Assembly: GCA_964543075.1 (NCBI GenBank)
Contig: CAZIVT010000002.1
Location: forward strand, 3,089-67,088
Reading direction: 5' to 3'
Source of the DNA: an uncultured Candidatus Saccharibacteria bacterium
Lineage (GTDB): Bacteria; Patescibacteriota; Minisyncoccia; Phycocordibacterales; PALSA-1337
DNA length: 64,000 nt
Both the position numbers and the translations under genes were made by a program. Positions 33,993-57,704 of the stretch are shown one piece after another. The notes under the pieces were generated by a model, which searched no databases, had not been told where the DNA came from, and saw only the letters and a program-made list of their open reading frames with translations. How positions within the stretch are numbered: the first letter of the stretch is position 1; each line of letters starts with the position of its first letter.

Positions 33993-34064
33993 GTTGCGGG
34001 GGCCGGAATCGAACCGGCAATTTTCAGGTTATGAGCCTGACGGGTTACCGTTACCCTACCCCGC
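33993..34064 (-). tRNA. tRNA-Met (CAT); the C1-A72 mismatch suggests an initiator
   Basis: Manual fold: CGCGGGG acceptor with C1 opposite A72, D arm GGGT/ACCC, anticodon arm TCAGG-CTCATAA-CCTGA, T arm GCCGG-TTCGATT-CCGGC. Ends are +/- 1 nt. Confidence 0.8.
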
Positions 34065-34179
34065 GATGTGAGGGCTCATTGTGTCATATTATAGCGTCTG
34101 ATGCAAGACCACGGATCGCGCCTCGAGGTGCGACCTTGATTTGCGCAAAGCCGTTTTTTCATCTATTGTATCTCCATCT

Positions 34180-34253
34180 GTCGGCGTAGCTCAGTTGGTT
34201 AGAGCGTGGGACTCATAAGCCCAAGGTCGGAGGTTCGATCCCTCCCGCCGACA
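34180..34253 (+). tRNA. tRNA with CAT anticodon (elongator Met or lysidine-modified Ile2)
   Basis: Acceptor GTCGGCG/CGCCGAC, anticodon loop CTCATAA, T arm GGAGG-TTCGATC-CCTCC. Confidence 0.8.
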
Positions 34254-34324
34254 CATCATGTTTTCTTGTGTTTTCCGCTCTTTTTGTTACACTAGGTCAC
34301 GTTCGTGCTTTGTATAGGGAATAT

Positions 34325-34399
34325 GCAGCTGTAGCTCAATCTGGTTAGAGCACTCCCCTGTCACGGGAGAGGTTGCGGGTTCGAGCCCCGTCAGCTGCG
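34325..34399 (+). tRNA. tRNA-Asp (GTC)
   Basis: Acceptor GCAGCTG/CAGCTGC, anticodon arm CTCCC-CTGTCAC-GGGAG, T arm GCGGG-TTCGAGC-CCCGT. Confidence 0.88.
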
Positions 34400-34484
34400 C
34401 ACTGCTCCGCTCTGCATACGCAGAGCTTCGCAGCGCAAGCATTGTGCTTGCCCTGCGAAGCTCGACGAAGTCGAGCGGATCAGG

Positions 34485-34560
34485 GCCGATGTAGCTCAGC
34501 TGGTAGAGCATTCCCATGGTAAGGGAAAGGTCTCCGGTTCAATCCCGGACATCGGCTCCA
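34485..34560 (+). tRNA. tRNA-Thr (GGT), CCA encoded
   Basis: Acceptor GCCGATG/CATCGGC, anticodon arm TTCCC-ATGGTAA-GGGAA, T arm TCCGG-TTCAATC-CCGGA, then TCCA. Confidence 0.88.
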
Positions 34561-34656
34561 CTGTTCCGATCCTCACGAGCTCGGAGTTTCGCAGTGCGGG
34601 CAACATATATGTGCCTGCTCTGCGAAGTCCCGAACGAGAGTGAGGGGCGGATCAGG

Positions 34657-34729
34657 GCCGAAGTAGCTCAGTTGGTAGAGCACTCGCTTCGTAAGCGAGT
34701 TGTCGCGAGTTCGATCCTCGCCTTCGGCT
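34657..34729 (+). tRNA. tRNA-Thr (CGT)
   Basis: Acceptor GCCGAAG/CTTCGGC, anticodon arm CTCGC-TTCGTAA-GCGAG, T arm GCGAG-TTCGATC-CTCGC. Confidence 0.88.
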
Positions 34730-37563: not shown

Positions 37564-37604
37564 GGATGTCGGTGTAGCCATGTAGGTCCCAATATATGTG
37601 GATA

Positions 37605-37632
37605 AAACCGTTCCGAAAAGGACGGTTTTTTT
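37605..37632 (+). terminator. Rho-independent terminator after ftsX
   Basis: AACCGTTCC-GAAAA-GGACGGTT followed by TTTTTT. Confidence 0.6.
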
Positions 37633-37657
37633 TGGTACAATTACCTGTGTCCGAATC

Positions 37658-40162: not shown

Positions 40163-40167
40163 ATATC

Positions 40168-41985
40168 ATGAAAGCGATACGCATACAGTTCGTCATGTAC
40201 GCGCTCGCCGCGCTCATCCTCGCCGGATTTGCCGGCGAGGCTTTGGCATCAGAGACGAGTGGTACGATCATCTCTGGTTCGTCATCGACCAGGATCTGCA
40301 AGGATGAGAGCTGTTCGTCATACAGCACCGTCAACTGGAAGCCGACACTCAACGCCAACACTACCGGCGCGACGGCTGTAGCTGTCACCGATAGCGGCGT
40401 TACCGGCTGGCTCTGGGGAGACGCCGTCGGCTGGGTCAACATGCAGCCCACCGGCGCGGGAGTGACCATCGATCCAAACACGGGAGCACTGTCTGGTCAC
40501 GCGTATGCCAATACCGGCTCATGGATTAATTTCAGCCCCACGACTGTCTCCGGCGGAACGCAGGTAGGAGTTACCATCACGTCAGCAGGGGAATTATCCG
40601 GTTGGGCGTATGTCTCCGGAGCCAACGGCGGCTGGATGAAGTTCGACTGCACAGCCGTGGCGACGTGTATCAAGACAGACTGGAGGCCCGTGAGTGCGCG
40701 GTCTTTCGGCGGATCAAGTGAACAGCCTTCTTCTGGCGGAGGCGGATCAGGATCCGTAGCTCGGACCACTACGACCTCGTGGTGGACGTGGCTCATTTCT
40801 CCTCTAGTCCCTCAGTCTCCGACTCTCGTCGTCGATCAGAACGCTCTCATAGCCGCTCCCATCGTACAGCCACAGAACCCCCTCGTGCGCACCATCGACG
40901 CCATCATTCCCGGGCTGATCCCGCAGACGCCTGTCCCGAGCCTGCCCGCACCCGTTATCTCAGCGGAGACACCGCTGTCATTGGCGGCCACATGGAACTT
41001 GGTCCCTGAGAAGCCCATCGCCGACTTCGTGATCGGTCCGCTCCCCGCGGAGATACGCATGCTGGCGATCAAATTCCCCGAGCTGGGAGAGACGTTCCGC
41101 GAGCTCGGCATCGCGCGGGTGAGCGATCTCGACAGGTTGAAGACGGCGCGCTTCGTCCTGCCGGGGCTCGATCAGGTCGAGGAGATACCGACGGACATCG
41201 TCTTCGCCAAGTCCGGCGATCTCATCAACTACAGCCCGTCACTGACTATCGCTGATGACGGTACGCCCGAGCAGCTCGTCAGTACCATCGTCGGCAAGCG
41301 GCTCGACCTGGTGATCAAGCCGGATCATCCGGTCGCGTCCATCGACGGGTATCTTCTGGTCAAGGACCTCGATCGCGTGCAGGCGCGCAAGGCGGTCCCG
41401 GAGACCTCGATACTGGCGTCGGCGCTGACCGCGGCTCTGGCCCTCATCAATCGGCCGACCGAGGCGCCGGCCGCACCGCCGGAAGAGAAGCTCGTGCTGG
41501 AGCGCTTCTCCTATAGCGACCCTGATGGGGATGGCATCTATACTGCCTCCATCCAGGCCCCGCTCGTGCATGGCGAGTACGAGGTCGTATCAGTCGTAGA
41601 ATACGAGGATGTCGCTCTGGGATCCAAGGAGTTCCGCTTGATAGCCGTCGTCGATCCGGAGGGGTATGTCTATCGTCGCAGTGGTGCGGACGAGGCGCGC
41701 ATCGGCGATGCGGTGGTCACGCTGTATCACAAGGATCCGGCCACGGGGACGTTCCTATCATGGGATGCCGGCAAATACCAACAGGTCAATCCGCAACGTA
41801 CCGACAAGAGCGGCACGTACTCGTTCCTCGTGCCGGAGGGGACATACCGGCTCGGCGTGACTGCGTCCGGATATGGCGAGTTCACCGGCCAGGAGTTCGA
41901 GGTGAGGCAGGGTAGGGGCGTCCATGAGAACATTGAGCTCAAGCCGGAGGGGTTCTTCAGGAGATTGTTCGGGATATTCAGGTAG
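40168..41985 (+). CDS. Secreted protein with GW-type repeats and a carboxypeptidase-regulatory-like C-terminal domain
   Basis: Signal peptide. Three repeats of the type GWLWGDAVGWVNMQP / GSWINFSP / GWAYVSGANGGWMKFD. C-terminus TDKSGTYSFLVPEGTYRLGVTASGY. Confidence 0.6.
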   Translation: MKAIRIQFVMYALAALILAGFAGEALASETSGTIISGSSSTRICKDESCSSYSTVNWKPTLNANTTGATAVAVTDSGVTGWLWGDAVGWVNMQPTGAGVTIDPNTGALSGHAYANTGSWINFSPTTVSGGTQVGVTITSAGELSGWAYVSGANGGWMKFDCTAVATCIKTDWRPVSARSFGGSSEQPSSGGGGSGSVARTTTTSWWTWLISPLVPQSPTLVVDQNALIAAPIVQPQNPLVRTIDAIIPGLIPQTPVPSLPAPVISAETPLSLAATWNLVPEKPIADFVIGPLPAEIRMLAIKFPELGETFRELGIARVSDLDRLKTARFVLPGLDQVEEIPTDIVFAKSGDLINYSPSLTIADDGTPEQLVSTIVGKRLDLVIKPDHPVASIDGYLLVKDLDRVQARKAVPETSILASALTAALALINRPTEAPAAPPEEKLVLERFSYSDPDGDGIYTASIQAPLVHGEYEVVSVVEYEDVALGSKEFRLIAVVDPEGYVYRRSGADEARIGDAVVTLYHKDPATGTFLSWDAGKYQQVNPQRTDKSGTYSFLVPEGTYRLGVTASGYGEFTGQEFEVRQGRGVHENIELKPEGFFRRLFGIFR

Positions 41986-42513: not shown

Positions 42514-43332
42514 ATGTACATGAAGCACCATACATCTATCCTGCTCGTCTTCATCTGCGCGATTGCCATCATATCGTGGTCGCTTCATGCTACGCATATC
42601 GTCTATGGCGCCGATGAAGTCGTCGATTCTCTCGAGGAGAGAGATACAGGGACAGTCCTCGGTACGAGCACTCCTCCCGTGGAGACAGAGATCATCCAGC
42701 CAGCGACCGTAGTAGATCCCTCAGCGACCAGCACGGAGGCTATAGTAGAGACGGGAGAGACATCAGAGCCACAAGAAGTCCTCGTGGATGACGTTGATAC
42801 TGGTGTCACAGGAGAAGCTACAGATGGATCTGTTCCCGAAGAGTCAGTCGATGATGGGTCAGAAGAGGTCGCTGATGAGGCATCTGACGAAGAGATGGTA
42901 GAGGAAACAGACGAAGAAGCCTATCTAGATCATCCCGGTCTTCCAACTGTCATGACTGTGCTCCCTAAGCCGAGAATATTCACTAAGAGCTTTGTCCTCG
43001 ATCGGGCGGCAGAGCATACGTGCAAAGCCCGCACGTTCAGAGTCGATATTTCAGGAGATGATTTCTCCTGGGTAGATGTCGCTTTTGAGGGTGCAGAAGA
43101 CGCGCTCTATCGCGCCGAGATCGGAGGTCTGCCGCGGGGCATAGAGGTGAGGTTCGTATCGACCGGCGACTATGCTACCGAGGTCAGCGCAGGCTATCAA
43201 GTCATCGATCTAGATATACACAGCGACCCTGGATCACAAAAAGGCAATTTTGACATACCGATCATATTCACCGCCTTGCGAGAAGAGGGGCCATCGTCTG
43301 TGTCATGTCAGTTCAACCTCGTCAACCTATGA
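42514..43332 (+). CDS. Secreted acidic hypothetical protein
   Basis: Start moved to MYMKHHTSILLVFICAIAIISWSLHA (signal peptide). Acidic low-complexity linker followed by a C-terminal globular part. Confidence 0.5.
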   Translation: MYMKHHTSILLVFICAIAIISWSLHATHIVYGADEVVDSLEERDTGTVLGTSTPPVETEIIQPATVVDPSATSTEAIVETGETSEPQEVLVDDVDTGVTGEATDGSVPEESVDDGSEEVADEASDEEMVEETDEEAYLDHPGLPTVMTVLPKPRIFTKSFVLDRAAEHTCKARTFRVDISGDDFSWVDVAFEGAEDALYRAEIGGLPRGIEVRFVSTGDYATEVSAGYQVIDLDIHSDPGSQKGNFDIPIIFTALREEGPSSVSCQFNLVNL

Positions 43333-44318
43333 AGAATCCTGATGCCGCAGCTCCTCGGATCGTTTGGCTGGTCGTCGCGATCTGCTTTTTTGCGACGGCT
43401 AGCGTCGTCCTAGGTTCTCTGCTTTTCGTCAAGACGCGCCCGGACGCTCTGCGTAAGGCCAGCAATCCGTATCCGCTCATCGATTTCGCACGGAGCTTCA
43501 TAGGACAGGAGCACTATCTGACGACTATCCAGCCGCTCCGTGCGCGCATCAAGGAGATGGCCGATGAATTCGAATCCGGATCGGTCTCTGTATATATAGA
43601 GTATCTCAATACGGGCGCGAACATCTCCATCAACCCGGAGCTCTATATATGGCCGGCGAGCTTGACCAAGGTCCCGCTTGCCATGGCCGTCATGAAGAAG
43701 ATCGAGAGAGGGGAATGGAAGCTCAGTAACGAGCTCGTCCTCATGCGTGGTGATGGCGACGACAAGTCCGGGGATAGCGAGAACCCGCTTTCGGAATACC
43801 CGATCGGCACCAGGTTCACCATCGAGAAGCTGCTCGAAGAGCTCCTCATCAACTCTGACAACACTGCTTATTTCATATTCTTACGCAATCTTCACCAGGA
43901 TGATCTCAAGAATGTCATCCAGTCGCTGGGCATGGAGGCCCTATTCACCGAAGAGGGGAAGATCTCGGCCAAAGAATATTCCCGCGTCCTACGGGCGCTG
44001 TATACCGCGAGCTTCCTCTCCAGAGAGCATTCGCAATACATGCTCGAACTGCTCGACAGGGCGACGTTCGACAAATTCATCTCTGGGGCAGTACCTGCAG
44101 AAGTTCCATTTCCTCATAAATATGGCGAGAACAAGCCGCTCGCCGCGTATTCTGATTCGGGTATAGCGTATGTTCCCGATAGGCCGTATATCATATCCGT
44201 CATGGTCCAGGGAGATCCACAGGCTCCTCATGACGTCGAAGCTGAGCGCGTCGCCGCGTTCATGAAAATGCTCTCCAAGGAGGCGTATGACTATTTCAGG
44301 ACCGAGATAAACCGATGA
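43329..44318 (+). CDS. Class-A beta-lactamase-like serine hydrolase with membrane anchor
   Basis: ATGA start/stop overlap with the upstream gene. S-x-x-K (PASLTKV), SDN (INSDNTAY) and a K-x-G-like motif (HKYGEN). Confidence 0.6.
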   Translation: MKNPDAAAPRIVWLVVAICFFATASVVLGSLLFVKTRPDALRKASNPYPLIDFARSFIGQEHYLTTIQPLRARIKEMADEFESGSVSVYIEYLNTGANISINPELYIWPASLTKVPLAMAVMKKIERGEWKLSNELVLMRGDGDDKSGDSENPLSEYPIGTRFTIEKLLEELLINSDNTAYFIFLRNLHQDDLKNVIQSLGMEALFTEEGKISAKEYSRVLRALYTASFLSREHSQYMLELLDRATFDKFISGAVPAEVPFPHKYGENKPLAAYSDSGIAYVPDRPYIISVMVQGDPQAPHDVEAERVAAFMKMLSKEAYDYFRTEINR

Positions 44319-44331: not shown

Positions 44332-47300
44332 ATGAAGCATATATGTATCAGTAGCTCGATTGTGGCACGTCTGACCAGGATATCTACCGGGTTCGTGCTC
44401 ATGCTGGCCATGGTTCTGACCAATATCCCCCTCGGATTCATCGTGACGATCGCGAAGAAATTCGATGACCGCAATGTTGTCGACTTGATGTGGCAGGCCC
44501 AGCGCGACTCGTCGGTCGTGGACTCGTTCGGCGTCGAGCAGGCTCATGCATCGGCAGAGAATACGGTCGATGTCACCATACTGGACGCTACCGACGAGTT
44601 CGGACCCTCTCCATCGGTCGTCTTCACGAGCGACCAAGTGGGATATGTTTTCTACATCGATGCGACTGCGCAGGATCTCGCCTACAGCAAGACCACCAAT
44701 GGCGGCACCAACTGGAGCGCGGCTGTCGTCATCGATACCGCCATCACCGGCTGGACCACCCTCGCCGTCTGGTATGACCAGTGGACGCCAGGAGACACCA
44801 CCGGCACGCGCATCCATATCGCCGCCGCGGACGATGCCGCTGACGACATCTACTACACATATCTCGATACCAACGGCGATACCCTCAAGGGCAGTGTGGT
44901 CGCGGCAGTCCCCGGATCGACTACCTTCACCGAAGCGAGCGATGGTCCCCCGAGCATCACCAAGGGAGCAGGAGGAGCACTCTTCATCTCCGGCAACTTC
45001 ACGAACACCGCCGGTGGCAAAGTCTACAAATCGACCGACGGAGCCGGAAACACATGGTCGGATGCCACGCCGACGAGCTGGAGCACAGTGGCGATCGATC
45101 AGATCCAGCTCTTACCTCTCCTCACCGACAACGACATCATCGCCATCAAGGCCCAGACGGCAGACAACACCATCAGATATCGCATATATGACGAGGTCGG
45201 CGACACCTGGGACGGAGCCTGGTCCGCGAGCATCGCCTCGCTCACCGAGAACACCACCTACGACCAGTGGTTCTCGGCCACCATCAGGAAGTCTACCGGA
45301 GACGTGTACCTCGCCTTCGCCAATCAGACCAACAATGCCGCCAACGATATCGCGTTCTGGAGCTTCGACGAGAGCGCTCGTTCGGGCTTCTCCCAAGGAG
45401 CGGATCTCTTCACCAACGATATCAGCGTGATGATGCCCGCTCCGCTCGTCGACGAGAACACGGGAGACATCTACGTCTCCTACCTCCGCGGCACGCTCAA
45501 CTCCGCCATGAATGTCTACTACAAGAAGTCGACTGATGGGGGCGCGAGTTGGGGCGATGAATCCGCGAAGCTCAACGAATTCGCCGATGACCACAAAGGC
45601 GTGCGTACCAATCTCCTCAGCGGGAGTAGGCTCTACGTCGTCTGGTACAACGACGACCTCAACGACATATATGGAAGTACCATCATGGATGGCGCAGAAG
45701 TGTCGATAGACAACGCCTTGACTGATGGTACCGACGAGTTCGGGCCGTCGCCATCATCGGTATTCATCTCTGATCAAGAAGGCTATGTCTTCTACATCGA
45801 TGCGGGTAACGACCTTGTCTATAGGAAGACCGTCGATGGAGGCAAGAACTGGCTCAATCCGGTGATCGTGAACAATGTCATCACCGGCTGGACCACCCTC
45901 GCCGTCTGGTATGACCAGTGGACGCCAGGAGACACCACCGGCACGCGCATCCATATCGCCGCCGCGGACGATGCCGCTGACGACATCTACTACACATATC
46001 TCGATACCAACGGCGATACCCTCAAGGGCAGTGTGGTCGCGGCAGTCCCCGGATCGACTACCTTCACCGAAGCGAGCGATGGTCCCCCGAGCATCACCAA
46101 GGGAGCAGGAGGAGCACTCTTCATCTCCGGCAACTTCACGAACACCGCCGGTGGCAAAGTCTACAAATCGACCGACGGAGCCGGAAACACATGGTCGGAT
46201 GCCACGCCGACGAGCTGGAGCACAGTGGCGATCGATCAGATCCAGCTCTTACCTCTCCTCACCGACAACGACATCATCGCCATCAAGGCCCAGACGGCAG
46301 ACAACACCATCAGATATCGCATATATGACGAGGTCGGCGACACCTGGGACGGAGCCTGGTCCGCGAGCATCGCCTCGCTCACCGAGAACACCACCTACGA
46401 CCAGTGGTTCTCGGCCACCATCAGGAAGTCTACCGGAGACGTGTACCTCGCCTTCGCCAATCAGACCAACAATGCCGCCAACGATATCGCGTTCTGGAGC
46501 TTCGACGAGAGCGCTCGTTCGGGCTTCTCCCAAGGAGCGGATCTCTTCACCAACGATATCAGCGTGATGATGCCCGCTCCGCTCGTCGACGAGAACACGG
46601 GAGACATCTACGTCTCCTACCTCCGCGGCACGCTCAACTCCGCCATGAACGTCTACTACAAGAAGTCGACTGATGGGGGTGCGAGTTGGGGAAGCGAATC
46701 GGAGAACTTGAACAAGGGCGTCGTCGATGACTTCAAGACTCTACGCGGGAACCTCCTGAGCGAAGATCGTCTCTATGCGGTCTGGTACAACGACGACCTC
46801 AACGACATATATGGAAGTACAGTAAACGACGTCTACGCATGGGAGCAGGCCGCGTATAGATTCTTCAACAGCGCCGCCTCCACCGATGTGGGGTCGGCTT
46901 TGGCGAATCAGGATATTCCGGGAGTCTTGGCGAGCGGCGGAGATACGTTCCGTCTGCGCATGCTTCTGCACAATACGGGACAGGCTCCGATCAATAGTGC
47001 CTCCATGAAGCTTCAGTATGCTGAGAAGTCAGGCACATGCGATACGGCTTTTTCGGGCGAGAGCTATGTCGATGTCACTTCATCGACTGATATAGCCTAT
47101 GATGTGGCCAACTCTCCGGCTGACGGAGATGCTTTGACATCCAACGCCTCAGACCCGACGCTCGGCAACAGTGTCGTCAATCAGACCTATGAAGAAGCCA
47201 ATCCCTTTACCAATACACAGGCCATAGTGCCATCGGGACAGGATGGTAAGTGGGATTTCGCGCTGATCGACAACGGCGCGCCGCCCGGTACGAGCTATTG

Positions 47301-48162
47301 TTTCCGTATCGTCTATACTGATGGCAATCTCATCAATCAGTATAGCGTCATCCCTGAGGTCTCTACCGCCTCCGGAGGCAATTCTCCACCCGTCGCTTCG
47401 GATGTCTCCATCGATTCTGATGCGGCCTCAGTGACGCTCATAGAAAGCACGACCAAGGACGTGGTCTGTGTCGCTACAGTCACTGATACGGATGGGTATA
47501 CAGATATTTCATCGGTCACGGCGGATCTCTTTCGGACATCACAGACTGTCAGTTCCGGACTCGATGACAACGATCACTATCAACTCTCAGGGGATAGTCA
47601 ATGCGTGCCTTCCGGTGGAGCGGGGAACAGTGAGACGTATACATGCACGTTCGCGGTCCAGTACTTCGCCGATGCTACGGATACTGGTTCGCCCAATGCG
47701 GCCGATGATTGGACGTGTCGAGTCATGCCCAGCGATTCAGCAGGAGAAGGGACGAGCGCGAGCGATACGATAGAAGTCGACTCACTGTTCGCATTGGAAG
47801 TCACGGCATCCATCGACTACGGGTCTCTCGATCCTGATAGCGATACGGGCTCGACCAATCAACAGGTGACGGTGACTAACACTGGCAATCGCGATATGGA
47901 TCCGCAGGTATCCGGAGGAGATATGGTTTCCGGCATCAATTCTATAGCCGTAGGACAACAAAAATACGCGTCTGCAGGATTCACCTATACGAGCGGTGGA
48001 ACGACGCTCTCCACGACACCGGCGACGCTCGACCTGGCCCTTCCTCAGCGCACCGCCGCGGTCGTCGACGCGCTCGTGTACTGGGGTATCGGCATACTGG
48101 ATGGGACTCCGGGAGGCGGATATGCCGGAACCAACACATTCACCGCTACGTCAGGTATATAA
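44332..48162 (+). CDS. Giant surface protein: two BNR/Asp-box beta-propeller units plus a C-terminal adhesin-like module
   Basis: Asp-box motifs (SKTTNGGTNWS, YKSTDGAGNTWS, KKSTDGGASWG) repeat in two ~379-aa units. The C-terminal ~300 aa are paralogous to the product of 48295..49209. Confidence 0.8.
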   Translation: MKHICISSSIVARLTRISTGFVLMLAMVLTNIPLGFIVTIAKKFDDRNVVDLMWQAQRDSSVVDSFGVEQAHASAENTVDVTILDATDEFGPSPSVVFTSDQVGYVFYIDATAQDLAYSKTTNGGTNWSAAVVIDTAITGWTTLAVWYDQWTPGDTTGTRIHIAAADDAADDIYYTYLDTNGDTLKGSVVAAVPGSTTFTEASDGPPSITKGAGGALFISGNFTNTAGGKVYKSTDGAGNTWSDATPTSWSTVAIDQIQLLPLLTDNDIIAIKAQTADNTIRYRIYDEVGDTWDGAWSASIASLTENTTYDQWFSATIRKSTGDVYLAFANQTNNAANDIAFWSFDESARSGFSQGADLFTNDISVMMPAPLVDENTGDIYVSYLRGTLNSAMNVYYKKSTDGGASWGDESAKLNEFADDHKGVRTNLLSGSRLYVVWYNDDLNDIYGSTIMDGAEVSIDNALTDGTDEFGPSPSSVFISDQEGYVFYIDAGNDLVYRKTVDGGKNWLNPVIVNNVITGWTTLAVWYDQWTPGDTTGTRIHIAAADDAADDIYYTYLDTNGDTLKGSVVAAVPGSTTFTEASDGPPSITKGAGGALFISGNFTNTAGGKVYKSTDGAGNTWSDATPTSWSTVAIDQIQLLPLLTDNDIIAIKAQTADNTIRYRIYDEVGDTWDGAWSASIASLTENTTYDQWFSATIRKSTGDVYLAFANQTNNAANDIAFWSFDESARSGFSQGADLFTNDISVMMPAPLVDENTGDIYVSYLRGTLNSAMNVYYKKSTDGGASWGSESENLNKGVVDDFKTLRGNLLSEDRLYAVWYNDDLNDIYGSTVNDVYAWEQAAYRFFNSAASTDVGSALANQDIPGVLASGGDTFRLRMLLHNTGQAPINSASMKLQYAEKSGTCDTAFSGESYVDVTSSTDIAYDVANSPADGDALTSNASDPTLGNSVVNQTYEEANPFTNTQAIVPSGQDGKWDFALIDNGAPPGTSYCFRIVYTDGNLINQYSVIPEVSTASGGNSPPVASDVSIDSDAASVTLIESTTKDVVCVATVTDTDGYTDISSVTADLFRTSQTVSSGLDDNDHYQLSGDSQCVPSGGAGNSETYTCTFAVQYFADATDTGSPNAADDWTCRVMPSDSAGEGTSASDTIEVDSLFALEVTASIDYGSLDPDSDTGSTNQQVTVTNTGNRDMDPQVSGGDMVSGINSIAVGQQKYASAGFTYTSGGTTLSTTPATLDLALPQRTAAVVDALVYWGIGILDGTPGGGYAGTNTFTATSGI
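44742..45512 (+). repeat. Internal tandem repeat, copy A (identical core)
   Basis: By eye, base-for-base identical to 45879..46649 (offset 1137 bp = 379 codons). The first mismatch is at 45513 (T versus C). Confidence 0.85.
45879..46649 (+). repeat. Internal tandem repeat, copy B (identical core)
   Basis: See copy A. The flanks of the two units are clearly diverged. Confidence 0.85.
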
Positions 48163-48294: not shown

Positions 48295-49209
48295 ATGAAA
48301 ACAAAAAAAGAGACTATCCATTCGATCGTCGCGTCAGGCGTGAGCGCCATCATGATACTATCGGCAGTCATCGTCCATGCCGATACGACGAGTACCTCTG
48401 TCACCGTGGGCAACGCCGCGCCTTCTATATCAGCCACGACCTTCAATAGCGGCTCAGCGATCGTGCTCACTGAGAACACCACGACGGCTGTATACGCGAC
48501 CACGACAGTCACAGATAGCAACGGATGTGGGAGTATCTACGGAGTCACCGCCAACATTCGCCGATCCGGCGTCGCCGCGGCGAGCTGTGACCAGGTCGGA
48601 GAAGCAGACAACAACAGTTGCTATCCGGTCCTCACGTGTACTGTAGAAGCAGGAACATGTACGGGGGGATCTGATACAGCGGCCAACTACGTATGTTCGA
48701 CATCGCTCCAGTTCTACGCTGATCCGACAGACTCAGGTAGCTTCAGTGCCCAAAACTGGACTGTCGACCTGATAGCCGGAGACGGGGTCGCTACGACTAC
48801 TGAGGCTGCCAACGCGAGCGTCGAGCTCAACTCTCTCGCGGCGCTCAATGTCGATGCTTCATTGGCATACGGCACGATCGCTGCCAATACCGATACAGGA
48901 GCTCTCAACTCGACTACCACGGTCACCAATACCGGCAATACCAACATAGACCCCGATATTTCAGGGACCAATATGACCTCAGGAGGAGATACGATAGCGG
49001 TAGGGAACCAGGAGTACAGCAGTTCGATATTCACGTACGGATCAGGTACGGACCTCTCGACTTCGCCCACGAGTCTCGACCTGACATTGGCCAAACCTAC
49101 ATCAGCGAGTGCGGTGACCGACGATGTTTCCTGGGGTATAGCCATACCGGGCGGAACTCCTCCGGGAAACTATACAGGCACCAACACATTCACGGCTGTT
49201 GCAAACTAG
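48295..49209 (+). CDS. Secreted two-domain adhesin/fibre-subunit-like protein
   Basis: Start moved to MKTKKETIHSIVASGVSAIMILSAVIVHA. It aligns by eye with the C-terminus of the giant protein (…SLQFYADPTDSGS…, …LNVDASLAYGTI…, …WGIAIPGGTPPGNYTGTNTFTAV). Confidence 0.65.
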   Translation: MKTKKETIHSIVASGVSAIMILSAVIVHADTTSTSVTVGNAAPSISATTFNSGSAIVLTENTTTAVYATTTVTDSNGCGSIYGVTANIRRSGVAAASCDQVGEADNNSCYPVLTCTVEAGTCTGGSDTAANYVCSTSLQFYADPTDSGSFSAQNWTVDLIAGDGVATTTEAANASVELNSLAALNVDASLAYGTIAANTDTGALNSTTTVTNTGNTNIDPDISGTNMTSGGDTIAVGNQEYSSSIFTYGSGTDLSTSPTSLDLTLAKPTSASAVTDDVSWGIAIPGGTPPGNYTGTNTFTAVAN

Positions 49210-49248: not shown

Positions 49249-50121
49249 GTGAATCTATCACGTCTCATCATCGGCATAGCCATAGTATCAGCATCCGTCG
49301 TGGGATGGGCGTCTTCCACGTATGCAGGGTTTGGTGTATCTCCAGGTCAGATCCAGGAGGACAAGCTCGTCCCTGGGGCGCTCATGGAAAAGACCATATA
49401 TCTAGTCCAAGGGACCCCTACTGAGGATTTGCCGATACGCGTATCAGTAGAATCTCCCAATATCCAAGATTGGATCACTATCCCGGATGGGCCGGATCAG
49501 GTCATCCCCGCGGGGCAACAGCAGTTCCCGGTTAGACTATCGATCCATGTTCCAGAGGATGCTTCGCTCGGGATATATCGCGCGTTCGTCAGAGTGACGA
49601 CGATCCCGCCCAAGGCCGAAGGGTCGCAGATCACCATCGCGCTCGGCGCCAAGGTGACCGTGGATCTCACTGTCGGCGATGATGTCGTATCAGAGTTCTC
49701 GGTCAAATCTATCAAGATCCAAGACATACATGAACGCCAAGATCCGCGCGTATCAGTGACGATCGTCAATACAGGCAACGTGCCTGCCGCTCCTGAGAAT
49801 GCCTCGTTCGAGCTATTCAACAAGTATGGTCAGATACGTCTCGCATACGCCGAGAACGATGATTTCGAAGAGACTCCGCCATTCCAGGAACGGACGATAG
49901 ATCTCCGATTCCCCCTCGATGTCCGGCTTGGTATCGGCGAGTACTGGGGCCATGTTAAAATCTATGATGATGGAATCGTCGTCAAAGAGCTCAAAACAAT
50001 CTTCAATGTCACCGAACGGACATGGTTGGAGCGCTACATGTATGCGCTCATCGGATCCGGCATCGGCATCATCATCTTGCTCCTCATCATCGTGGGGTAT
50101 CTCGCTCGCAAACGTGCGTAG
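49249..50121 (+). CDS. Cell-surface protein with two beta-sandwich-like halves and a C-terminal TM anchor (DUF916/DUF3324-like architecture)
   Basis: GTG start, signal peptide, GFGVSPGQIQEDKLVPGALMEKTIYLV, a second half VSVTIVNTGNVPAAPENASFELF, and a C-terminal TM plus basic tail LARKRA. Confidence 0.55.
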   Translation: MNLSRLIIGIAIVSASVVGWASSTYAGFGVSPGQIQEDKLVPGALMEKTIYLVQGTPTEDLPIRVSVESPNIQDWITIPDGPDQVIPAGQQQFPVRLSIHVPEDASLGIYRAFVRVTTIPPKAEGSQITIALGAKVTVDLTVGDDVVSEFSVKSIKIQDIHERQDPRVSVTIVNTGNVPAAPENASFELFNKYGQIRLAYAENDDFEETPPFQERTIDLRFPLDVRLGIGEYWGHVKIYDDGIVVKELKTIFNVTERTWLERYMYALIGSGIGIIILLLIIVGYLARKRA

Positions 50122-51229
50122 CATCCTCGCATCTATTCTCATAGCGGCGTCCCTCGTGTCTCTATGTCCCGCGCAGTATCTCTATGCCGCGACGTCAGAG
50201 GTCACGGTGACCGTCATTGTGGCAGAGTGTTCTGATGGCATAGACAACGATGGCAATAGCCTCATCGACTATCCGGATGATCCAGGATGTACGTCAGCAC
50301 TAGATCTATACGAGGATACGATCGCAGCATGTGCGGATGGTATAGACAACGATAGCGATGGATCGACCGACTTCCCGGCGGATATCGGATGTGATTCTGC
50401 GGGAGACGATGATGAGTACAACGCTCCCTCGACCCCTCCGAGCGGGGGATCGGGAGGGAGTAGTGGTGGAGGCAGTAGAGGCGACGACACACCTCCTCCA
50501 TCCTCCCAATCTAGCGTGATCATCAAGGGTGTCGCCTATCCAGGTAGCGATGTCCATGTGCTCAAGGATGGACAGTCTGTCGCTATTTCGCCGGCAGGTC
50601 CAGATGCCAAGTTCGAGATACAAGTCTCAGGTCTGGGACCGGGTACCTATACGTTCAGCGTGTGGGCTTCCGATTCCAATGGAGTCCGTTCGACGCTCTA
50701 TCCCTTCACGGTGACGCTCTCACCCAGTATAACCGCCGTCGTGAGCGGTGTATACTTGCCGCCTACCTTGAGCATCGGCTTTTCCTCCGTACGGCGTGGC
50801 GATCCACTGACGATCATCGGGCAGACCAGGCCGTCAGCTAGCGTCTCAGTCGTGACGCACTCTGAGAGTGAGGTCATCGGACAGGCCGTCGCCGATGCTC
50901 AGGGTCTCTGGAGCTACGTGCTCGATACGCTTCAGCTCGAGTATGGCGATCATATGACCCAGGCGCGCTCCAAGGCGGGTGCCGAGATCAGCATGATGTC
51001 GAAGTCCCTCATCTTCAAAGTTGCGTCACAATCCATCCCGCTTACCTCCGCAGAGGGTCTCATGGGCGACTTCAATCATGACAACAGGGTCAATCTAGCC
51101 GACTTCAGCATCATGTTATATTGGCATGGTCGTCCGCTCACGGCTTCATCCCCCGGAGTCGATCTCAATGGTGACGGCAAACTCGATCTGACCGATTTCA
51201 GCATATTCGCCTATCATTGGACGGGATAG
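50114..51229 (+). CDS. Secreted protein with Cys/Asp calcium-binding-type repeats, an Ig-like region and a C-terminal dockerin
   Basis: GTG start overlapping the upstream stop. CSDGIDNDGNSLIDYPDDPGC and CADGIDNDSDGSTDFPADIGC repeats. Dockerin pair DFNHDNRVNLADFSIM and DLNGDGKLDLTDFSIF. Confidence 0.7.
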   Translation: MRSILASILIAASLVSLCPAQYLYAATSEVTVTVIVAECSDGIDNDGNSLIDYPDDPGCTSALDLYEDTIAACADGIDNDSDGSTDFPADIGCDSAGDDDEYNAPSTPPSGGSGGSSGGGSRGDDTPPPSSQSSVIIKGVAYPGSDVHVLKDGQSVAISPAGPDAKFEIQVSGLGPGTYTFSVWASDSNGVRSTLYPFTVTLSPSITAVVSGVYLPPTLSIGFSSVRRGDPLTIIGQTRPSASVSVVTHSESEVIGQAVADAQGLWSYVLDTLQLEYGDHMTQARSKAGAEISMMSKSLIFKVASQSIPLTSAEGLMGDFNHDNRVNLADFSIMLYWHGRPLTASSPGVDLNGDGKLDLTDFSIFAYHWTG

Positions 51230-51252
51230 GTTCTACGATATCTCACATCATC

Positions 51253-52179
51253 ATGAATACCAGAACACCAAACTCGTATAGATCTACCGTGACAGCTTTC
51301 ATGCTCGTCGCGCTCTATGTTCTCATCCCCGCTCCTGCTGACGCGGCCGAATCATGGTTCGTATCGGATATGATCGAGGTCGGATCTGAGTCTCACATCT
51401 TCGTCATGATGAGTTCGGACGATCCGATCAATGCTGTCGAGATGTCTATACACGCGCCAGATGGTCTGCGCATAGTGGATGCGTCAGACGGAGATTCGGT
51501 CGTCAATTTCTGGGTCGAACGGCCGATGGTCTCAGAGGACATGAGGTCAGTCAGGTTCGCAGGCATCATCCCAGGAGGGTTCAGCGGCGCAGAAGGGAAG
51601 GTCATCGACCTGAGCGTCATAGCCGATCGGCCAGGGCAATACACGATGTCGTTCGATGCATCTTCCAAGCTCTATATGAATGATCCGACAGCGGCAGGGA
51701 TCGAGATCCAGGTCCGACCTTCTCGAATCATCGCGAGCGTCGATGTGGCCACGTCATCGGCCGCGATACAGTCTGACACAGACGTCGATCCTCCCGAGCC
51801 GTTCACTCCGGTCTATGCGCGCATCTCCGATGGGGATGAGGATTTCTGGGTGGTCTCATTCGAGACGCAAGACAAAGGATCAGGAGTCTATCTCTACCAG
51901 GTCGCCGAGACGCGCAGGCCAGTAGATATGGATGATCGTTTCGCGCTCGCGCGGCTCACGTGGACGACGACGTGGTCGCCGTATCGACTATCGGACCAGG
52001 AGACTGTTTCGCATATCTATGTCAAAGCCGTCGATCGCAAGGGCAATGTCCGATTCGGTCATCTCGATCCACTGCGACATATCCCATGGTATCGAGGCCC
52101 GATCCAGTATATACTTATCCTGACGGTATCAATCGCGCTCCTTGTCTTCCTGTGGTCGCGTCGGAGAGCGGTGCGGTGA
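51253..52179 (+). CDS. Membrane-anchored cohesin-like domain protein
   Basis: Signal peptide, a domain aligning with the cohesin-like N-domain of the next gene (…INAVEMSIHAPDGLRIVDASDGDSVVNFWV…), and a C-terminal TM YILILTVSIALLVFLW. Confidence 0.55.
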   Translation: MNTRTPNSYRSTVTAFMLVALYVLIPAPADAAESWFVSDMIEVGSESHIFVMMSSDDPINAVEMSIHAPDGLRIVDASDGDSVVNFWVERPMVSEDMRSVRFAGIIPGGFSGAEGKVIDLSVIADRPGQYTMSFDASSKLYMNDPTAAGIEIQVRPSRIIASVDVATSSAAIQSDTDVDPPEPFTPVYARISDGDEDFWVVSFETQDKGSGVYLYQVAETRRPVDMDDRFALARLTWTTTWSPYRLSDQETVSHIYVKAVDRKGNVRFGHLDPLRHIPWYRGPIQYILILTVSIALLVFLWSRRRAVR

Positions 52180-52192
52180 CGTCCATATCTCT

Positions 52193-53956
52193 ATGCTGAG
52201 AGCGATTCTTGCGTATACCAGATCTACTAGCCGACATACGTCGCGTATGGCGGCTGTCGTAGCGCTCATGGCGCTCGTCTCTATCGGCTATGTCTCTCCA
52301 TCTCGAGCCGAGGCCGCGGTGCTGTCTATCGCTCCGTCAGACGCATCGGCGACATATACGGTGGGTCAGGTATTCTCTGTACCAGTCCTCGTCTCGACAG
52401 TGAGCGGCATCCCAGTCAATGCCGTATCAGGCACGATCTCATTCCCGACCAATTCTCTCCAAGTCGTCTCGCTCGATACGTCCGGAACATTCGTGGATTT
52501 CTGGATAAGCAAGCCCGTGTTCTCCAATAGCGAGGGGACTATCAATTTCGAAGGAGGCTCCTACAATCCAGGATTCCTCGGTTCGGGAGGGAAGATAGTC
52601 AATATCCTATTCAAAGCAAAGGCTGTCGGTCCGGCGACGGTCTCATTTTTGAGCTCAGCAGCTCTGGCCAATGACGGGCGGGGAACCAACATCCTCATCA
52701 AGGCCAATCCGGCAACGCTCAATATCGTCCCTTCTTCTGCTCTCGTTCCTGATGTAGCCAATACAGTCGAAAGCCAAGCACTCTCTGCGTATTCGCCGAC
52801 TCACCCTGATCAGACCAAGTGGTACAATCTGACCACGGCAAAAGTCGCTTGGCGTCTCCCGACAGGGACAACTGCCGTGAGGACGCGCCTCGACAGGAGT
52901 CCGTCGACCATACCGTCGATCATGTACTCTCCTCCGATCTCTGAGAAAGAGGTAGAAATATCCTCTGACGGTGTCTGGTATTTCCATGTACAAGCTCGCA
53001 ATGACAGCGCGTGGGGTCCAGTCACTCACTACAAGTTGCAGATCGATACGACATCCCCCGATCCATTTTCCATCGAATTCCCCCATGGTTCCACATCTGA
53101 TGATCCGCGCCCCGTCATACTCTTCAATACCACCGATGGACTCTCTGGCATGAGTCACTACGATGTAGTGATCGGTGATTTGGATCTGGTACACGTAGAT
53201 TACAAATCTGTCGATAGCAATCCATATGCCATACCTGATCAGGATCCTGGAGATCAGGTAATCAAAGTAGTCGCGTATGATGTCGCAGGCAATGCCGCGA
53301 TCGCCACGAGCACGTTCACTATCACCGGTCTCAAGCAGCCTGAGTTCGACGCGTTCCCCGAGATCCTCACAGAAGGAGACAGCCTCCAATTTCTCGGTAC
53401 CACGTATCCATACGCGACCTTGGTGGTCACCATCACAGATAGCGTCGGGCAACCTGTCACACAAGAAGCAGTGGCGAACTCAGCTGGCAGATTCATCATG
53501 ATATGGCAGAAATATCTCAACAAAGGCCTGTATACAATGACGTCACATGTCGTCGATGAACGGGGAGCCAAGAGCGTTTCTATCGACGAACGACTGATCA
53601 CTGTCAGGCCACCTGCGCTCACGCGCATTGGCGTGCCGATACTCAACTACATGACGTTCCTCGCCATCGTCATCGGTGGCATCGCGGCGATCGTTCTCTG
53701 GTCCTGGTACCTGCTCTATCATGTGCGCAAATTGAATCGCAAGCTCTCTAGCCGTCTTCGCGCCGCTGATGAAAGCGTCCATACTCAGTTCAAGAAGCTG
53801 CAAAGATCGGTCAGCCAACAGGTCAAGGCGCTCGAAGCCGCTTCCGAGCGCCGGACGCTGACCCCCGAGGAATCTCGACTGATCGACGGGCTCCGCGATG
53901 CCATAGACGAGGCGGAAGAAGTTGTGGAACGAGAAGTCAAAGACATCGGGAAGTAG
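52193..53956 (+). CDS. Cohesin-domain surface protein with Ig-like repeats, a TM anchor and a cytoplasmic coiled coil
   Basis: VLSIAPSDASATYTVGQVFSVPVLVST...VNAVSGTISFPTNSLQVVSLD...GTINFEGG is a cohesin-like pattern. TM segment FLAIVIGGIAAIVLWSWYLLY. Confidence 0.65.
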   Translation: MLRAILAYTRSTSRHTSRMAAVVALMALVSIGYVSPSRAEAAVLSIAPSDASATYTVGQVFSVPVLVSTVSGIPVNAVSGTISFPTNSLQVVSLDTSGTFVDFWISKPVFSNSEGTINFEGGSYNPGFLGSGGKIVNILFKAKAVGPATVSFLSSAALANDGRGTNILIKANPATLNIVPSSALVPDVANTVESQALSAYSPTHPDQTKWYNLTTAKVAWRLPTGTTAVRTRLDRSPSTIPSIMYSPPISEKEVEISSDGVWYFHVQARNDSAWGPVTHYKLQIDTTSPDPFSIEFPHGSTSDDPRPVILFNTTDGLSGMSHYDVVIGDLDLVHVDYKSVDSNPYAIPDQDPGDQVIKVVAYDVAGNAAIATSTFTITGLKQPEFDAFPEILTEGDSLQFLGTTYPYATLVVTITDSVGQPVTQEAVANSAGRFIMIWQKYLNKGLYTMTSHVVDERGAKSVSIDERLITVRPPALTRIGVPILNYMTFLAIVIGGIAAIVLWSWYLLYHVRKLNRKLSSRLRAADESVHTQFKKLQRSVSQQVKALEAASERRTLTPEESRLIDGLRDAIDEAEEVVEREVKDIGK

Positions 53957-57076: not shown

Positions 57077-57175
57077 CCCTCCCTCTGCTCCTCGCATGCT
57101 CGGAGCTTCGGAAGGACGAGAAGCGATTTCGATAGAGCATGAGGCACGTCGTATATTCGATCAGTATATTTACAT

Positions 57176-57246
57176 TGCGGGATCGTCTAATGGTAGGACA
57201 CAGCTCTCTGAAAGCTGGTATCTTGGTTCGAGTCCAAGTCCCGCAG
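57176..57246 (+). tRNA. tRNA-Gln (CTG)
   Basis: Acceptor TGCGGGA/TCCCGCA (U1-A72 as in tRNA-Gln), anticodon arm CAGCT-CTCTGAA-AGCTG, T arm CTTGG-TTCGAGT-CCAAG. Confidence 0.85.
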
Positions 57247-57329
57247 CACTTCGGCTCGCCGCGCTCGCCTTAGCACCTCAACCTACAACGTCATTTCGAG
57301 CCCCACAGGCTTTTGCTATAATCATACCC

Positions 57330-57704
57330 ATGAAACCTACAAGCGAAGCGACGCTCAAGCGCGTGCATGCAATGAGCTTTGCAAAGGTATATCCGATGTA
57401 CATCGCTAAGGCTGAAAAGAAAGGCCGCACCAAGGGAGAGGTCGACGAAGTCATTCGCTGGCTCACTGGATACGCGCAAAGCGAATTGGATGCGCAGATC
57501 AAAAGGGAGGTGAGCTTCGAGACCTTCTTCGAAGAAGCTCCTAGGCTCAATCCTTCACGCGAGCTCATCACGGGGACGATCTGTGGTGTGCGGGTAGAGG
57601 AGATAGGAGATGAGATCATGCGTGAAGTCCGCTATCTCGACAAGTTGGTCGATGAGCTCGCACAAGGGAGGCCGGTGGAGAAGATCCTGCGGAAGGTCGC
57701 ATAG
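57330..57704 (+). CDS. DUF2200-family protein
   Basis: Start moved to [48 protein letters not shown], typical of DUF2200. TATAAT-N7-ATG. The longer ORF runs through tRNA-Gln. Confidence 0.7.

Follow-up and report, generated by a model that had tools for sequence, protein, structure and literature searches.

The locus considered here raises the question of what a dockerin and two cohesin-like domains, encoded side by side, do in a bacterium of the ultra-small Patescibacteria (Parcubacteria type) in a context that does not look cellulolytic. A preliminary description of the stretch of DNA analyzed (64 kb, hereafter the window) had proposed a three-gene scaffold for displaying a secreted protein on the cell surface, possibly for attachment to a host cell. 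We consider it probable, with moderate confidence, that these genes encode a dedicated, non-cellulosomal cohesin-dockerin tether on the patescibacterial cell surface. No published description of this cassette was found.

The genes are arranged in the order A, B, C, D, E, F, where A is a large and B a small secreted protein, C a membrane anchor that resembles the WxL-interacting proteins (WxLIP), D the dockerin protein, and E and F the two cohesin anchors (Table 1). Hydrophobicity profiles show only an N-terminal signal in D, whilst in C, E, and F the signal is complemented by a C-terminal transmembrane helix with basic residues behind it. The likely start codon of E is the ATG at 51253 and that of F the ATG at 52193 or 52247, rather than the TTG codons upstream. 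The proposed scaffold is supported, as a secreted D and anchored E and F fit surface display, but the conserved unit exceeds three genes and takes in C and usually also A and B at the same locus. A class-A β-lactamase-like/PBP-like gene is located upstream in the window as well as in about 10-12 loci, and ftsE/ftsX are close by both here and at several loci; the association with ftsEX, bla, and pyrG is limited to a minority of the loci.

Table 1. Genes and protein features of the locus, with positions in the window.
Feature	Position	Strand	Evidence
Gene A, large secreted protein, 1276 aa	44332..48162	+	ORF and translation
Gene B, small secreted protein, 304 aa	48295..49209	+	Signal peptide and domain common to A C-terminus
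Gene C, WxLIP-like membrane protein, 290 aa	49249..50121	+	Hydrophobicity, family synteny
Gene D, secreted dockerin protein, 371 aa	50114..51229	+	Translation, Pfam
Two acidic Cys-closed loops, D aa 39-93	50228..50392	+	Sequence, NCBIfam NF033662
Gly/Ser/Pro-rich linker and two Ig-like (Big_6) domains, D aa ~100-306	50411..51031	+	Pfam Big_6; boundaries approximate
C-terminal two-segment dockerin, D aa 318-371	51065..51226	+	Pfam Dockerin_1
Gene E, short cohesin anchor, 308 aa	51253..52179	+	AF2, Foldseek, profile vs PDB, hydrophobicity
E cohesin, aa ~28-166	51334-51750	+	AF2 model, Foldseek, profile
E transmembrane helix, aa 284-302, then RRRAVR	52102-52158	+	Hydrophobicity
Gene F, long cohesin anchor, 587 aa	52193..53956	+	Pfam, AF2, Foldseek, hydrophobicity
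F cohesin, aa 42-179	52316-52729	+	Pfam Cohesin, AF2
F three Ig-like domains, aa 198-472	52784-53608	+	AF2 domain layout
F transmembrane helix, aa ~483-506	53639-53710	+	Hydrophobicity

In D, a signal peptide precedes two acidic Cys-loop repeats, and a Gly/Ser/Pro linker leads on to two Ig domains and the two-segment dockerin; the C-terminal end reads ...GDFNHDNRVNLADFSIMLYWHGRPLTASSPGVDLNGDGKLDLTDFSIFAYHWTG. The dockerin had been called canonical from its sequence and is indeed recognized by Pfam at the extreme C-terminus, where Dockerin_1 (PF00404) scores 24.5 bits vs. a gathering cutoff of 22.9; this score, like that of Cohesin in F given below, exceeds the threshold by only 1-2 bits. Both segments, DFNHDNRVNLAD-FSIMLYW ... 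DLNGDGKLDLTD-FSIFAYHW-TG, consist of an EF-hand-like Ca loop and then a helix, as required for a type I dockerin (~22 residues each). The module is always located at the extreme C-terminus in the 182 members of the D family, and its two segments are nearly identical in consensus: the Ca positions 1/3/5/9/12 are D/N in 89-100% (segment 1) and 73-98% (segment 2) of the members, both helices read FSIxAY, and the protein terminates with xWTG. Dockerin_1 matches 108 of 117 family members (best E=5.9e-11), and Big_6, which matches two stretches of D itself (E=1.3e-9), is found in 106 of them. A catalytic domain was found neither in D by Pfam nor in the family scan; besides the dockerin, D has only Ig domains and Cys loops.

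The two calcium-type Cys-loop repeats that had been noted earlier are present in the translation as CSDGIDNDGNSLIDYPDDPGC (aa 39-59) and CADGIDNDSDGSTDFPADIGC (aa 73-93), with the pattern C-x-DG-x-DND...D-[YF]-P-x-D-x-GC. These Cys-closed loops probably bind calcium. They match NCBIfam NF033662, the "acidic double-disulfide repeat," over two stretches with 38.8 bits, just below the cutoff of 41. The motif is present in 64 of the 182 D-family members, and it was not found outside this family in the window or in related loci. FN3 tips are found in 17 of 117 members, and at one locus a different N-terminal domain is joined to this poly-Gly linker and dockerin in a protein encoded ahead of E. A run of at least eight G/S/P residues is present in 159 of the 182 proteins.

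The products of the two following genes start with a signal peptide, and their C-terminal helices agree with the membrane anchoring that had been suggested for them. The AF2 model of E (pLDDT 91.2), which includes an Ig-like domain (aa ~185-272), matches about 50 solved cohesins with a Foldseek probability of 1.00; in comparisons with single-domain cohesins, E-values go down to 1.5e-7, with a target-normalized TM of 0.53-0.78 and an rmsd of 2.5-6.0 Å. The family profile of E also matches solved cohesins of Ruminococcus flavefaciens (5aoz, E=6.5e-5; 5m2o, E=3e-4). E alone is not matched by any Pfam family, whilst Cohesin matches 8 of 71 members of its family. In F, Pfam Cohesin (PF00963) scores 25.2 bits vs. 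a gathering cutoff of 24.1, and Big_13 matches as well; in its family, the corresponding numbers are 44 and 70 of 70 members, respectively. In Foldseek, the F model (pLDDT 89.6) matches rod-like adhesins with multiple Ig domains and, with E=2.9e-10, the cohesin-FN3 structure 2w1n. As presumed in the preliminary description, the second anchor adds Ig-like repeats and a cytoplasmic helical part, which in the AF2 model are three Ig-like domains and a helical hairpin of roughly 80 residues (aa ~507-587). The N-domains of E and F are paralogous, with 30% identity over 152 residues (BLASTP, E=3e-14) and a probability of 100% when the family profiles are aligned with hhalign (E=1.5e-45). A failure of these N-domains to match cohesin profiles or folds had been named beforehand as evidence against the proposal and was looked for; profile, fold, and paralogy agree that both are cohesins. 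Their conserved residues (INAxEG, NFW/LWV, SGIIPGG/FEG..NPG, and L(L/A)NDGxGT) are located on strands 3, 5, 6, and 8 of the models which, judged from strand order rather than from 3D superposition, would constitute the canonical dockerin-binding 8-3-6-5 sheet. The last of these motifs is degenerate in the E protein of the window (YMNDPTAAG).

The genomic linkage between the dockerin and the cohesins is reciprocal. Each scan covered the 80 loci most similar to the query, and divergent contexts are under-sampled in the numbers that follow. D, E, and F were found in the same order and in one orientation in 61 of the best 80 Patescibacteria genome loci listed, most exceptions being contig ends, with median gaps of 7 and -26 nt. 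When the dockerin only was taken as the starting point, E/F were located downstream in 74 of the best 80 metagenome loci listed, i.e., in 74 of 75 informative loci. There is about one dockerin gene per locus, and a single one in the 64-kb window; F was found without D nearby in four loci. Furthermore, proteins of ~250 residues in three loci are natural fusions of an E/F-type cohesin (E~1e-23) and this dockerin, and E-F fusions are also seen. The conserved order, the reverse linkage, and the fusions lend strong comparative support to a functional cohesin-dockerin pair of D and E/F. The set is not confined to a narrow group: relatives of F are encoded in at least 583 species genomes, and the F profile matches 6162 clusters (50% identity) at E<=1e-30, giant multi-Ig proteins included. 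The mean pairwise identity is 58% for the dockerin, 53% for the F cohesin, and 33% for the E cohesin. Comparison of distance matrices, which lacks a proper phylogenetic control, gave r=0.46 (partial 0.41) for the dockerin and the F cohesin vs. a partial r=0.00 for the dockerin and the E cohesin; F would be the main partner of the dockerin.

The upstream half of the locus recalls another type of surface gene cluster. A contains two near-identical units of ~379 residues with Asp-box-like motifs, and its C-terminal domain (aa 1016-1272) is a paralog of B (41% identity, E=5e-45). Likewise, the C-terminal ~160 residues of the "large" protein are common to the next "small" protein in 30 of 34 related loci (E 2e-4 to 5e-117). 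Searches of Pfam, PDB, and NCBIfam did not assign the repeated unit of A to a family, and the alignment of the B family had no match in Pfam or PDB. C possesses a signal peptide, two β-sandwich-type regions, and a transmembrane helix (aa 264-282) followed by RKRA. Its family is present in 50 of the best 80 loci listed, and C is located directly upstream of D in 43 of the 61 D-E-F trios. Firmicute WxL clusters encode a large WxL protein, a small WxL protein, and a WxLIP (DUF916-DUF3324-TM) (Siezen et al., 2006, PMC1534035; Hassan et al., 2023, PMC10599100). Similarly, the large secreted protein A here shares its C-terminal domain with the small secreted protein B, and a membrane protein with two β-sandwich regions and a C-terminal anchor comes next. 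In contrast, a WxL domain or motif is not detectable in A or B: neither PF13731, the Pfam family with the dual Trp-x-Leu, nor any other Pfam family matched B, the C-terminus of A, or 32 B-type proteins, and there was no PDB match. Also, the resemblance of C to WxLIP is limited, as the peptidoglycan-binding domain WxLIP_PGBD (PF06030) matches 11 of 32 C-family members weakly (best E=1.6e-4) and does not match the C protein of the window; WxLIP_HBD did not match any of the 32. Finally, WxL clusters are not known to carry cohesin-dockerin genes. The cassette is part of a larger conserved surface locus, A to F, the first half of which is built like a WxL cluster.

Whether the complex is directed at a host or at the cell itself has to be weighed. 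It could be a core element of the envelope, for example a tether or spacer between the membrane, the wall, and a surface layer, possibly with a role in wall growth or division, rather than a device for host attachment. The very broad distribution, over at least 583 species genomes and several thousand clusters, would fit such a role, as would the near-invariant interface residues of the dockerin, where host-facing adhesins are expected to diversify. The resemblance of C to a peptidoglycan-binding domain, the β-lactamase-like/PBP-like gene and ftsE/ftsX in the neighborhood, and the conserved cytoplasmic tail of F point in the same direction. However, the N-terminal tip of D varies and is swappable, with Cys loops, FN3, or another domain in this position, and the A proteins range in size from about 300 to >2000 residues across loci, both of which look like ligand-facing diversity, whilst the linkage to ftsEX, bla, and pyrG is seen in a minority of loci only. 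Such an envelope role in place of host attachment seems rather unlikely.

We regard it as still more doubtful that the cohesin-like domains bind another target, such as a glycan, peptidoglycan, or the domain shared by A and B, and that the dockerin is a Ca2+-stabilized, EF-hand-like terminal module or binds another partner. For many cohesin- and dockerin-like modules outside cellulosomes, no partner is known (Peer et al., 2009, as cited in PMC10066038); moreover, E is a poorly conserved protein whose variation does not follow that of the dockerin. These considerations are opposed by the adjacency of the genes in both search directions, by the presence of both modules in one polypeptide at three loci, by the single dockerin per locus, and by the location of the conserved cohesin residues on strands that would form the canonical binding face.

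The modules themselves are those of the cellulosomes of Clostridium (Acetivibrio) thermocellum, C. cellulolyticum, and R. flavefaciens, with the Pfam families PF00963 and PF00404. Like type I cellulosomal dockerins, the dockerin of D is internally symmetric with hydrophobic recognition positions (L-V ... A-Y). Symmetric type I dockerins bind in two alternative orientations. The cohesin-dockerin fusions at some loci are "adaptor-like," as in cellulosomes. In a Shapirobacterales (CPR) MAG, cohesin and dockerin proteins that were expressed have been read as a cellulosome by Bell et al. (bioRxiv 10.1101/2021.08.21.457207). Yet, despite these module types and this precedent, it is very improbable that E and F are anchoring scaffoldins of a minimal cellulosome-like system, with dockerin-tagged carbohydrate-active enzymes encoded at other sites of the genome. 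D has no catalytic domain, there is one cargo per locus, and the dockerin is almost never found apart from E/F in the metagenome loci listed. Pfam scans of roughly 35 larger window ORFs detected no second dockerin and no CBM family and, in agreement with the preliminary description, no glycoside hydrolase. A multi-cohesin scaffoldin with CBM and SLH/sortase is absent, E and F each having one cohesin and a transmembrane helix.

Cohesin-dockerin systems outside cellulosomes have been surveyed (Peer et al., 2009, FEMS Microbiol Lett 291:1, reference 42 of PMC10066038). Among the known examples are the toxin/glycosidase complexes of Clostridium perfringens (GH84C cohesin-FN3 2w1n; cohesins 2vo8 and 2jh2) and the Archaeoglobus fulgidus cohesin 2xdh. 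The nine-stranded β jelly-roll of cohesins is common to these and to the proteins described here, 2w1n and 2xdh being the best and second-best Foldseek matches of the E model, and so is the use of a two-segment Ca-type dockerin outside cellulose degradation. As in 2w1n, an FN3/Ig domain follows the cohesin in E and F. In contrast to the C. perfringens complexes, neither partner is an enzyme here. The locus further differs from non-cellulosomal systems in that single cohesins tip membrane proteins with one C-terminal helix, with an additional cytoplasmic coiled coil in F, in that one dockerin gene is operon-linked to two cohesin genes, and in that conservation of the set extends over an entire radiation of uncultured bacteria.

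A surface tether could operate as follows. D is exported via its signal peptide and has an N-terminal tip that varies between genomes and here consists of two acidic, probably Ca2+-binding Cys loops. E and F are type I membrane proteins with the cohesin at the membrane-distal end of an Ig stalk, which contains one Ig-like domain in E and three in F. Loaded with Ca2+, the dockerin may plug into F's cohesin and possibly into that of E as well, so that D would be held non-covalently on the cell with its tip presented outward. The evidence that points to this binding consists of the genomic linkage and the fusions; the Ca2+ dependence is presumed. Since the cytoplasmic helical hairpin of F is conserved, the complex would span the membrane. 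The cassette may serve adhesion or surface architecture, and it may play a role in host attachment; its very broad conservation and the near-invariance of its interface are as compatible with a core envelope structure as with host-specific adhesion. Given the presence of the D-E-F set in hundreds of genomes of Patescibacteria (CPR), it is probably a Ca-dependent tether for a non-enzymatic surface protein rather than a cellulose-degrading machine.

The product of gene D (371 aa) starts with a signal-like segment, followed by two acidic loops closed by Cys residues, a Gly/Ser/Pro-rich linker, two Ig-like domains and a C-terminal dockerin (see table). In Pfam, it matched Big_6 (E=1.3e-9) and Dockerin_1 (24.5 bits, cutoff 22.9), and the Cys loops scored 38.8 with the NCBIfam model 'acidic double-disulfide repeat', slightly under its cutoff of 41. 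Thus, both features that a preliminary description had read from the sequence of D were recovered, the two-segment dockerin by its Pfam score and the ligand positions kept in its family, and the two Cys-loop repeats as a motif with the repeat model nearly at cutoff. In the D family (182 members examined), D/N occupies the five calcium-ligand positions in 89-100% in the first dockerin segment and in 73-98% in the second, the helix after the calcium loop reads FSIxAY in both segments, and the consensus sequences of the two segments are almost equal. A strict two-segment pattern is located at the extreme C-terminus of 161 members, and about 96% end with xWTG. In view of these family-wide ligand, helix and segment-consensus statistics, D carries a genuine, canonical and internally symmetric dockerin.

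Features of the A-F locus, with gene positions in window coordinates, and of related fusion proteins
Feature	Position or sequence	Strand	Remark
Gene A	44332-48162	+	locus A-F
Gene B	48295-49209	+	locus A-F
Gene C	49249-50121	+	locus A-F
Gene D	50114-51229	+	locus A-F; in the preliminary description
Gene E	51253-52179	+	locus A-F; in the preliminary description
Gene F	52193-53956	+	locus A-F; in the preliminary description
D, acidic Cys-closed loops	CSDGIDNDGNSLIDYPDDPGC and CADGIDNDSDGSTDFPADIGC	+	translation
D, C-terminus	GDFNHDNRVNLADFSIMLYW...DLNGDGKLDLTDFSIFAYHWTG	+	translation
F, cohesin	aa 42-179	+	F model
F, three Ig-like domains	aa 198-472	+	F model
F, after the Ig-like domains	transmembrane helix, then cytoplasmic helical hairpin of ~80 aa	+	F model
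Cohesin-dockerin fusion ORFs	L067:5206-5964; L075:13007-13753; L079:4529-5275		

In the products of the next two genes, E and F, the N-terminus is signal-like and includes an Ala-x-Ala site, and Arg/Lys residues come after a C-terminal transmembrane helix, which places the bodies of both proteins outside the cell. They are related to each other in the N-terminal domain (BLASTP, E=3e-14) and in one Ig-like domain (E=0.004), and alignment of the family profiles with hhalign gave a probability of 100% (E=1.5e-45) and revealed an inserted domain of about 100 aa in F. F passed the Pfam Cohesin threshold (25.2, threshold 24.1), as did 44 of 70 members of its family; E itself had no Pfam match, and only 8 of its 71 relatives matched Cohesin. 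The E family profile did match solved cohesins of Ruminococcus flavefaciens (5aoz, E=6.5e-5; 5m2o, E=3e-4), and the AlphaFold model of E (pLDDT 91.2) matched about 50 solved cohesins with a Foldseek probability of 1.00. The top matches were a cohesin-FN3 pair of Clostridium perfringens (2w1n) and a non-cellulosomal cohesin of A. fulgidus (2xdh; target-normalised TM 0.78). The model of F (pLDDT 89.6) was, as a whole, likened by Foldseek to rod-like multi-Ig adhesins and receptors. Hence, the earlier proposal of two membrane-anchored paralogues with cohesin-like N-domains, the second of which adds Ig-like repeats and cytoplasmic helices, withstood comparison with cohesin profiles and folds.

Six closely spaced genes on the + strand, A to F, occupy 44.3-54.0 kb and are followed by pyrG. 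The distances between them range from -8 to about 130 nt. A promoter/terminator scan of 42-56.5 kb, in which counts were at chance level, detected no terminator-like sites between these genes, which fits an operon but gives no further information. Among the best 80 related genome loci (L numbers), D, E and F are co-directional and co-ordered in 61, with median gaps of 7 and -26 nt, and most of the other loci are truncated at contig ends. In a reverse test with the dockerin peptide alone as query, E/F were found downstream in 74 of 80 metagenome loci among the matches listed; five contigs end too early, and one locus lacks E/F. With a dockerin HMM, a single dockerin ORF was detected in the 64-kb window, and roughly one in each related locus. 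An ORF of ~115 aa (neighbour cluster 9) is located between D and E in L010, L042 and L072. Several E homologues in the databases (P0299, P0312, P0320, P0266, P0281, P0306) are extended by PF05635/PF22296 (23S rRNA intervening-sequence protein) or PF13366 domains; these extra domains may represent the cluster 9 gene joined to E by gene callers.

Wherever homologues of D, E and F are named, they belong to the Patescibacteria, among them Kaiser-, Wolfe-, Magasanik-, Azam-, Staskawicz-, Taylor- and Doudnabacteria, Paceibacterota and CPR3. Relatives of F are encoded in at least 583 genomes in a scan with one genome per species. A search of 1.84 billion representatives with the F profile yielded 6162 matches at E<=1e-30, giant multi-Ig proteins included, and the top 150 were mostly full-length (560-600 aa).

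The linkage of D, E and F in the three-gene scaffold proposed earlier was borne out, but its extent was drawn too narrowly, as the conserved unit also takes in C, A and B. Clustering of all neighbour genes in the best 80 genome loci revealed a recurring order of large, small, C, D, E and F, beyond which no neighbour was kept in more than 12 loci. An iterative search found relatives of C in 50 of these 80 loci, and C directly precedes D in 43 of the 61 trios. Like E and F, C combines a signal with a transmembrane helix near its C-terminus; 11 of 32 members of its family match Pfam WxLIP_PGBD (formerly DUF916; best E=1.6e-4), and the window's own C has no match to this family. The small and large proteins have their C-terminal ~160 aa in common in 30 of 34 loci, and in the window B aligns to residues 1016-1272 of A (41% identity, E=5e-45). 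B-type proteins had no match in Pfam or PDB, and the repeated unit of A had none in Pfam, PDB or NCBIfam. Within A, a segment is tandemly duplicated at a period of 1137 nt (repeats 44674-44973 and 45811-46110; 91% identical across 300 nt, with long identical protein stretches), so that the product comprises two ~379-aa units that carry Asp-box-like STDGGASW motifs. The duplication could be a recent event or an assembly artefact. The motifs are insufficient to identify the unit as a sialidase, and it belongs to no detectable family. A variant locus type without C (L014, L037, L055, L077, L027, L056, L068) has a small protein of ~130-157 aa (cluster 6) in its place, directly 5' of a longer D (435-458 aa); in several of these loci, a very large protein (up to about 2500 aa) comes before it.

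The remaining window encodes housekeeping functions, i.e., RF2, FtsE/X, DNA ligase, a class I (Trp/Tyr-type) tRNA synthetase, a GatA-like amidase, CTP synthase and tRNAs. Five tRNA genes (33994-34729; one on the - strand, four on the + strand) are located directly 5' of RF2-ftsE-ftsX, and a listed ORF at 57096-57704 overlaps a tRNA gene (57176-57246, + strand), downstream of which its true coding start is probably located. Positions 1-12000 have a GC content of 0.42-0.49 versus about 0.54 and encode a Cu-type P-type ATPase, a multicopper oxidase, an HTH/S24 repressor and a serine recombinase. The recombinase ORF (10134-11717) overlaps at its end with a tRNA (11666-11752, - strand), and the region is probably an integrated mobile element with copper-resistance cargo. 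A type IV pilus set, consisting of PilM, a PilB-like ATPase (T2SSE+MshEN), a PilT-like ATPase, PilC (T2SSF) and prepilin peptidase (15784-26155), is found 18-28 kb upstream of A-F. Also upstream, at 37598-41985, are genes for two more large secreted proteins, one with a Peptidase_S74 domain (endosialidase / tail-fibre intramolecular chaperone), the other with a CarboxypepD_reg domain. The class-A beta-lactamase-like gene at 43305-44318 has counterparts 5' of the cassette in about 10-12 of the related loci.

Rosetta-stone fusions are encoded in three loci (L067, L075 and L079), where proteins of ~250 aa begin with a signal and unite an E/F-type cohesin (E~1e-23) with a D-type dockerin in one chain. 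They are located in a second module downstream of F, beside another large protein and, in L067 and L075, adjoining a C homologue. With their cohesin and C-terminal dockerin, these chains resemble adaptor scaffoldins or self-associating units. E-F fusions of about 866-900 aa were also found. In L062, the gene 5' of E encodes an unrelated N-terminal domain, yet with the same poly-Gly linker and dockerin. FN3 domains are present in 17 of 117 members of the D family and one or more Cys loops in 64 of 182. From this swap and these counts, we infer that D consists of a constant part, i.e., linker, Ig-Ig and dockerin, and an exchangeable tip.

Which cohesin would bind the dockerin was addressed in 58 complete trios, in which mean pairwise identity was highest for the dockerin (58%), followed by the F cohesin (53%) and the E cohesin (33%). 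In a comparison uncorrected for phylogeny, dockerin distances correlated with those of the F cohesin (r=0.46; partial r=0.41 given E) and not with those of the E cohesin when F was controlled (partial r=0.00), a weak hint that F is the main partner. Residues kept in both cohesin families (INAxEG, NFW/LWV, SGIIPGG or FEG..NPG, and L(L/A)NDGxGT) map to model strands 3, 5, 6 and 8, as assigned by strand order rather than superposition, and would lie on the sheet used for dockerins in solved complexes.

The best-supported model is that of a dedicated, non-cellulosomal, Ca2+-dependent cohesin-dockerin tether, in which the dockerin at the C-terminus of secreted D would keep it bound to the cohesin at the membrane-distal end of F, and possibly of E. 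On this flexible arm, the variable tip of D would be displayed, and the complex would form part of a WxL-like surface locus. The proposed joint resembles those of cellulosomes and of C. perfringens toxin complexes. The role of the tether may be either core envelope architecture, consistent with the invariant interface and the phylum-wide spread, or host attachment, which the preliminary description had suggested, the variable tips of D and A pointing to a ligand-facing role. A more far-reaching reading, which we consider unlikely, is that A-F constitute a Patescibacteria-wide membrane-spanning surface machine, in which the joint would couple an exchangeable extracellular tip (D, perhaps A/B via C) to F, and the conserved cytoplasmic coiled coil of F would relay contact or load inward or position the complex relative to division and wall synthesis. 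In such a machine, the cohesin stalks of E (short) and F (long) could be linked to each other by the symmetric dockerin, and cohesin-dockerin fusions could extend the assembly, as adaptor scaffoldins do. If true, A-F would be a main determinant of surface building or host grip in these ultra-small episymbionts. A cellulosome, the reading published for a Shapirobacterales MAG, can be dismissed for this locus, since the window shows no dockerin enzymes, multi-cohesin scaffoldin or CBM, and anchoring is by transmembrane helices; as noted earlier, no glycoside hydrolase is nearby, and neither these nor CBM families were found among the roughly 35 window ORFs scanned.

Firmicute WxL clusters encode a large and a small WxL protein and a WxLIP with a transmembrane helix (PMC10599100; PMC1534035). 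The A/B pair and the anchored C protein follow the same logic; however, no WxL domain was detectable in the locus with Pfam and PDB. Non-cellulosomal cohesins and dockerins are already known (Peer et al., 2009, as cited in PMC10066038), and NCBI names some homologues 'cohesin domain-containing'. In the saccharibacterium Southlakia, a 'dockerin' protein of 927 aa, SEML1_0315, is essential (Wang et al., 2023, PMC10633639). Its gene lies between a hydrolase gene and a tRNA gene, without cohesin neighbours; it is a different, unlinked gene, and its essentiality is therefore not transferable to the D-E-F cassette. In the searchable literature on dockerins and cohesins in CPR, Patescibacteria, Parcubacteria, Saccharibacteria and DPANN, we found passing mentions and no description of a D-E-F operon.

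The Patescibacteria (CPR) account for a large part of bacterial diversity; most have not been cultured and are presumed to live attached to other cells. To our knowledge, their surface machinery is almost uncharacterised, type IV pili excepted. The cassette, encoded in at least hundreds of species, leads to a specific hypothesis accessible to in vitro tests, in which a small soluble dockerin would be expected to bind two cohesin domains in the presence of Ca2+. If confirmed, annotations and papers that take such CPR genes for cellulosomes would be corrected, a new orthogonal cohesin-dockerin pair would become available for protein engineering, and the D tips and A proteins would serve as handles for finding host ligands. 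The cohesin-dockerin joint would then be a general surface-anchoring device in a major radiation, without a link to cellulose.
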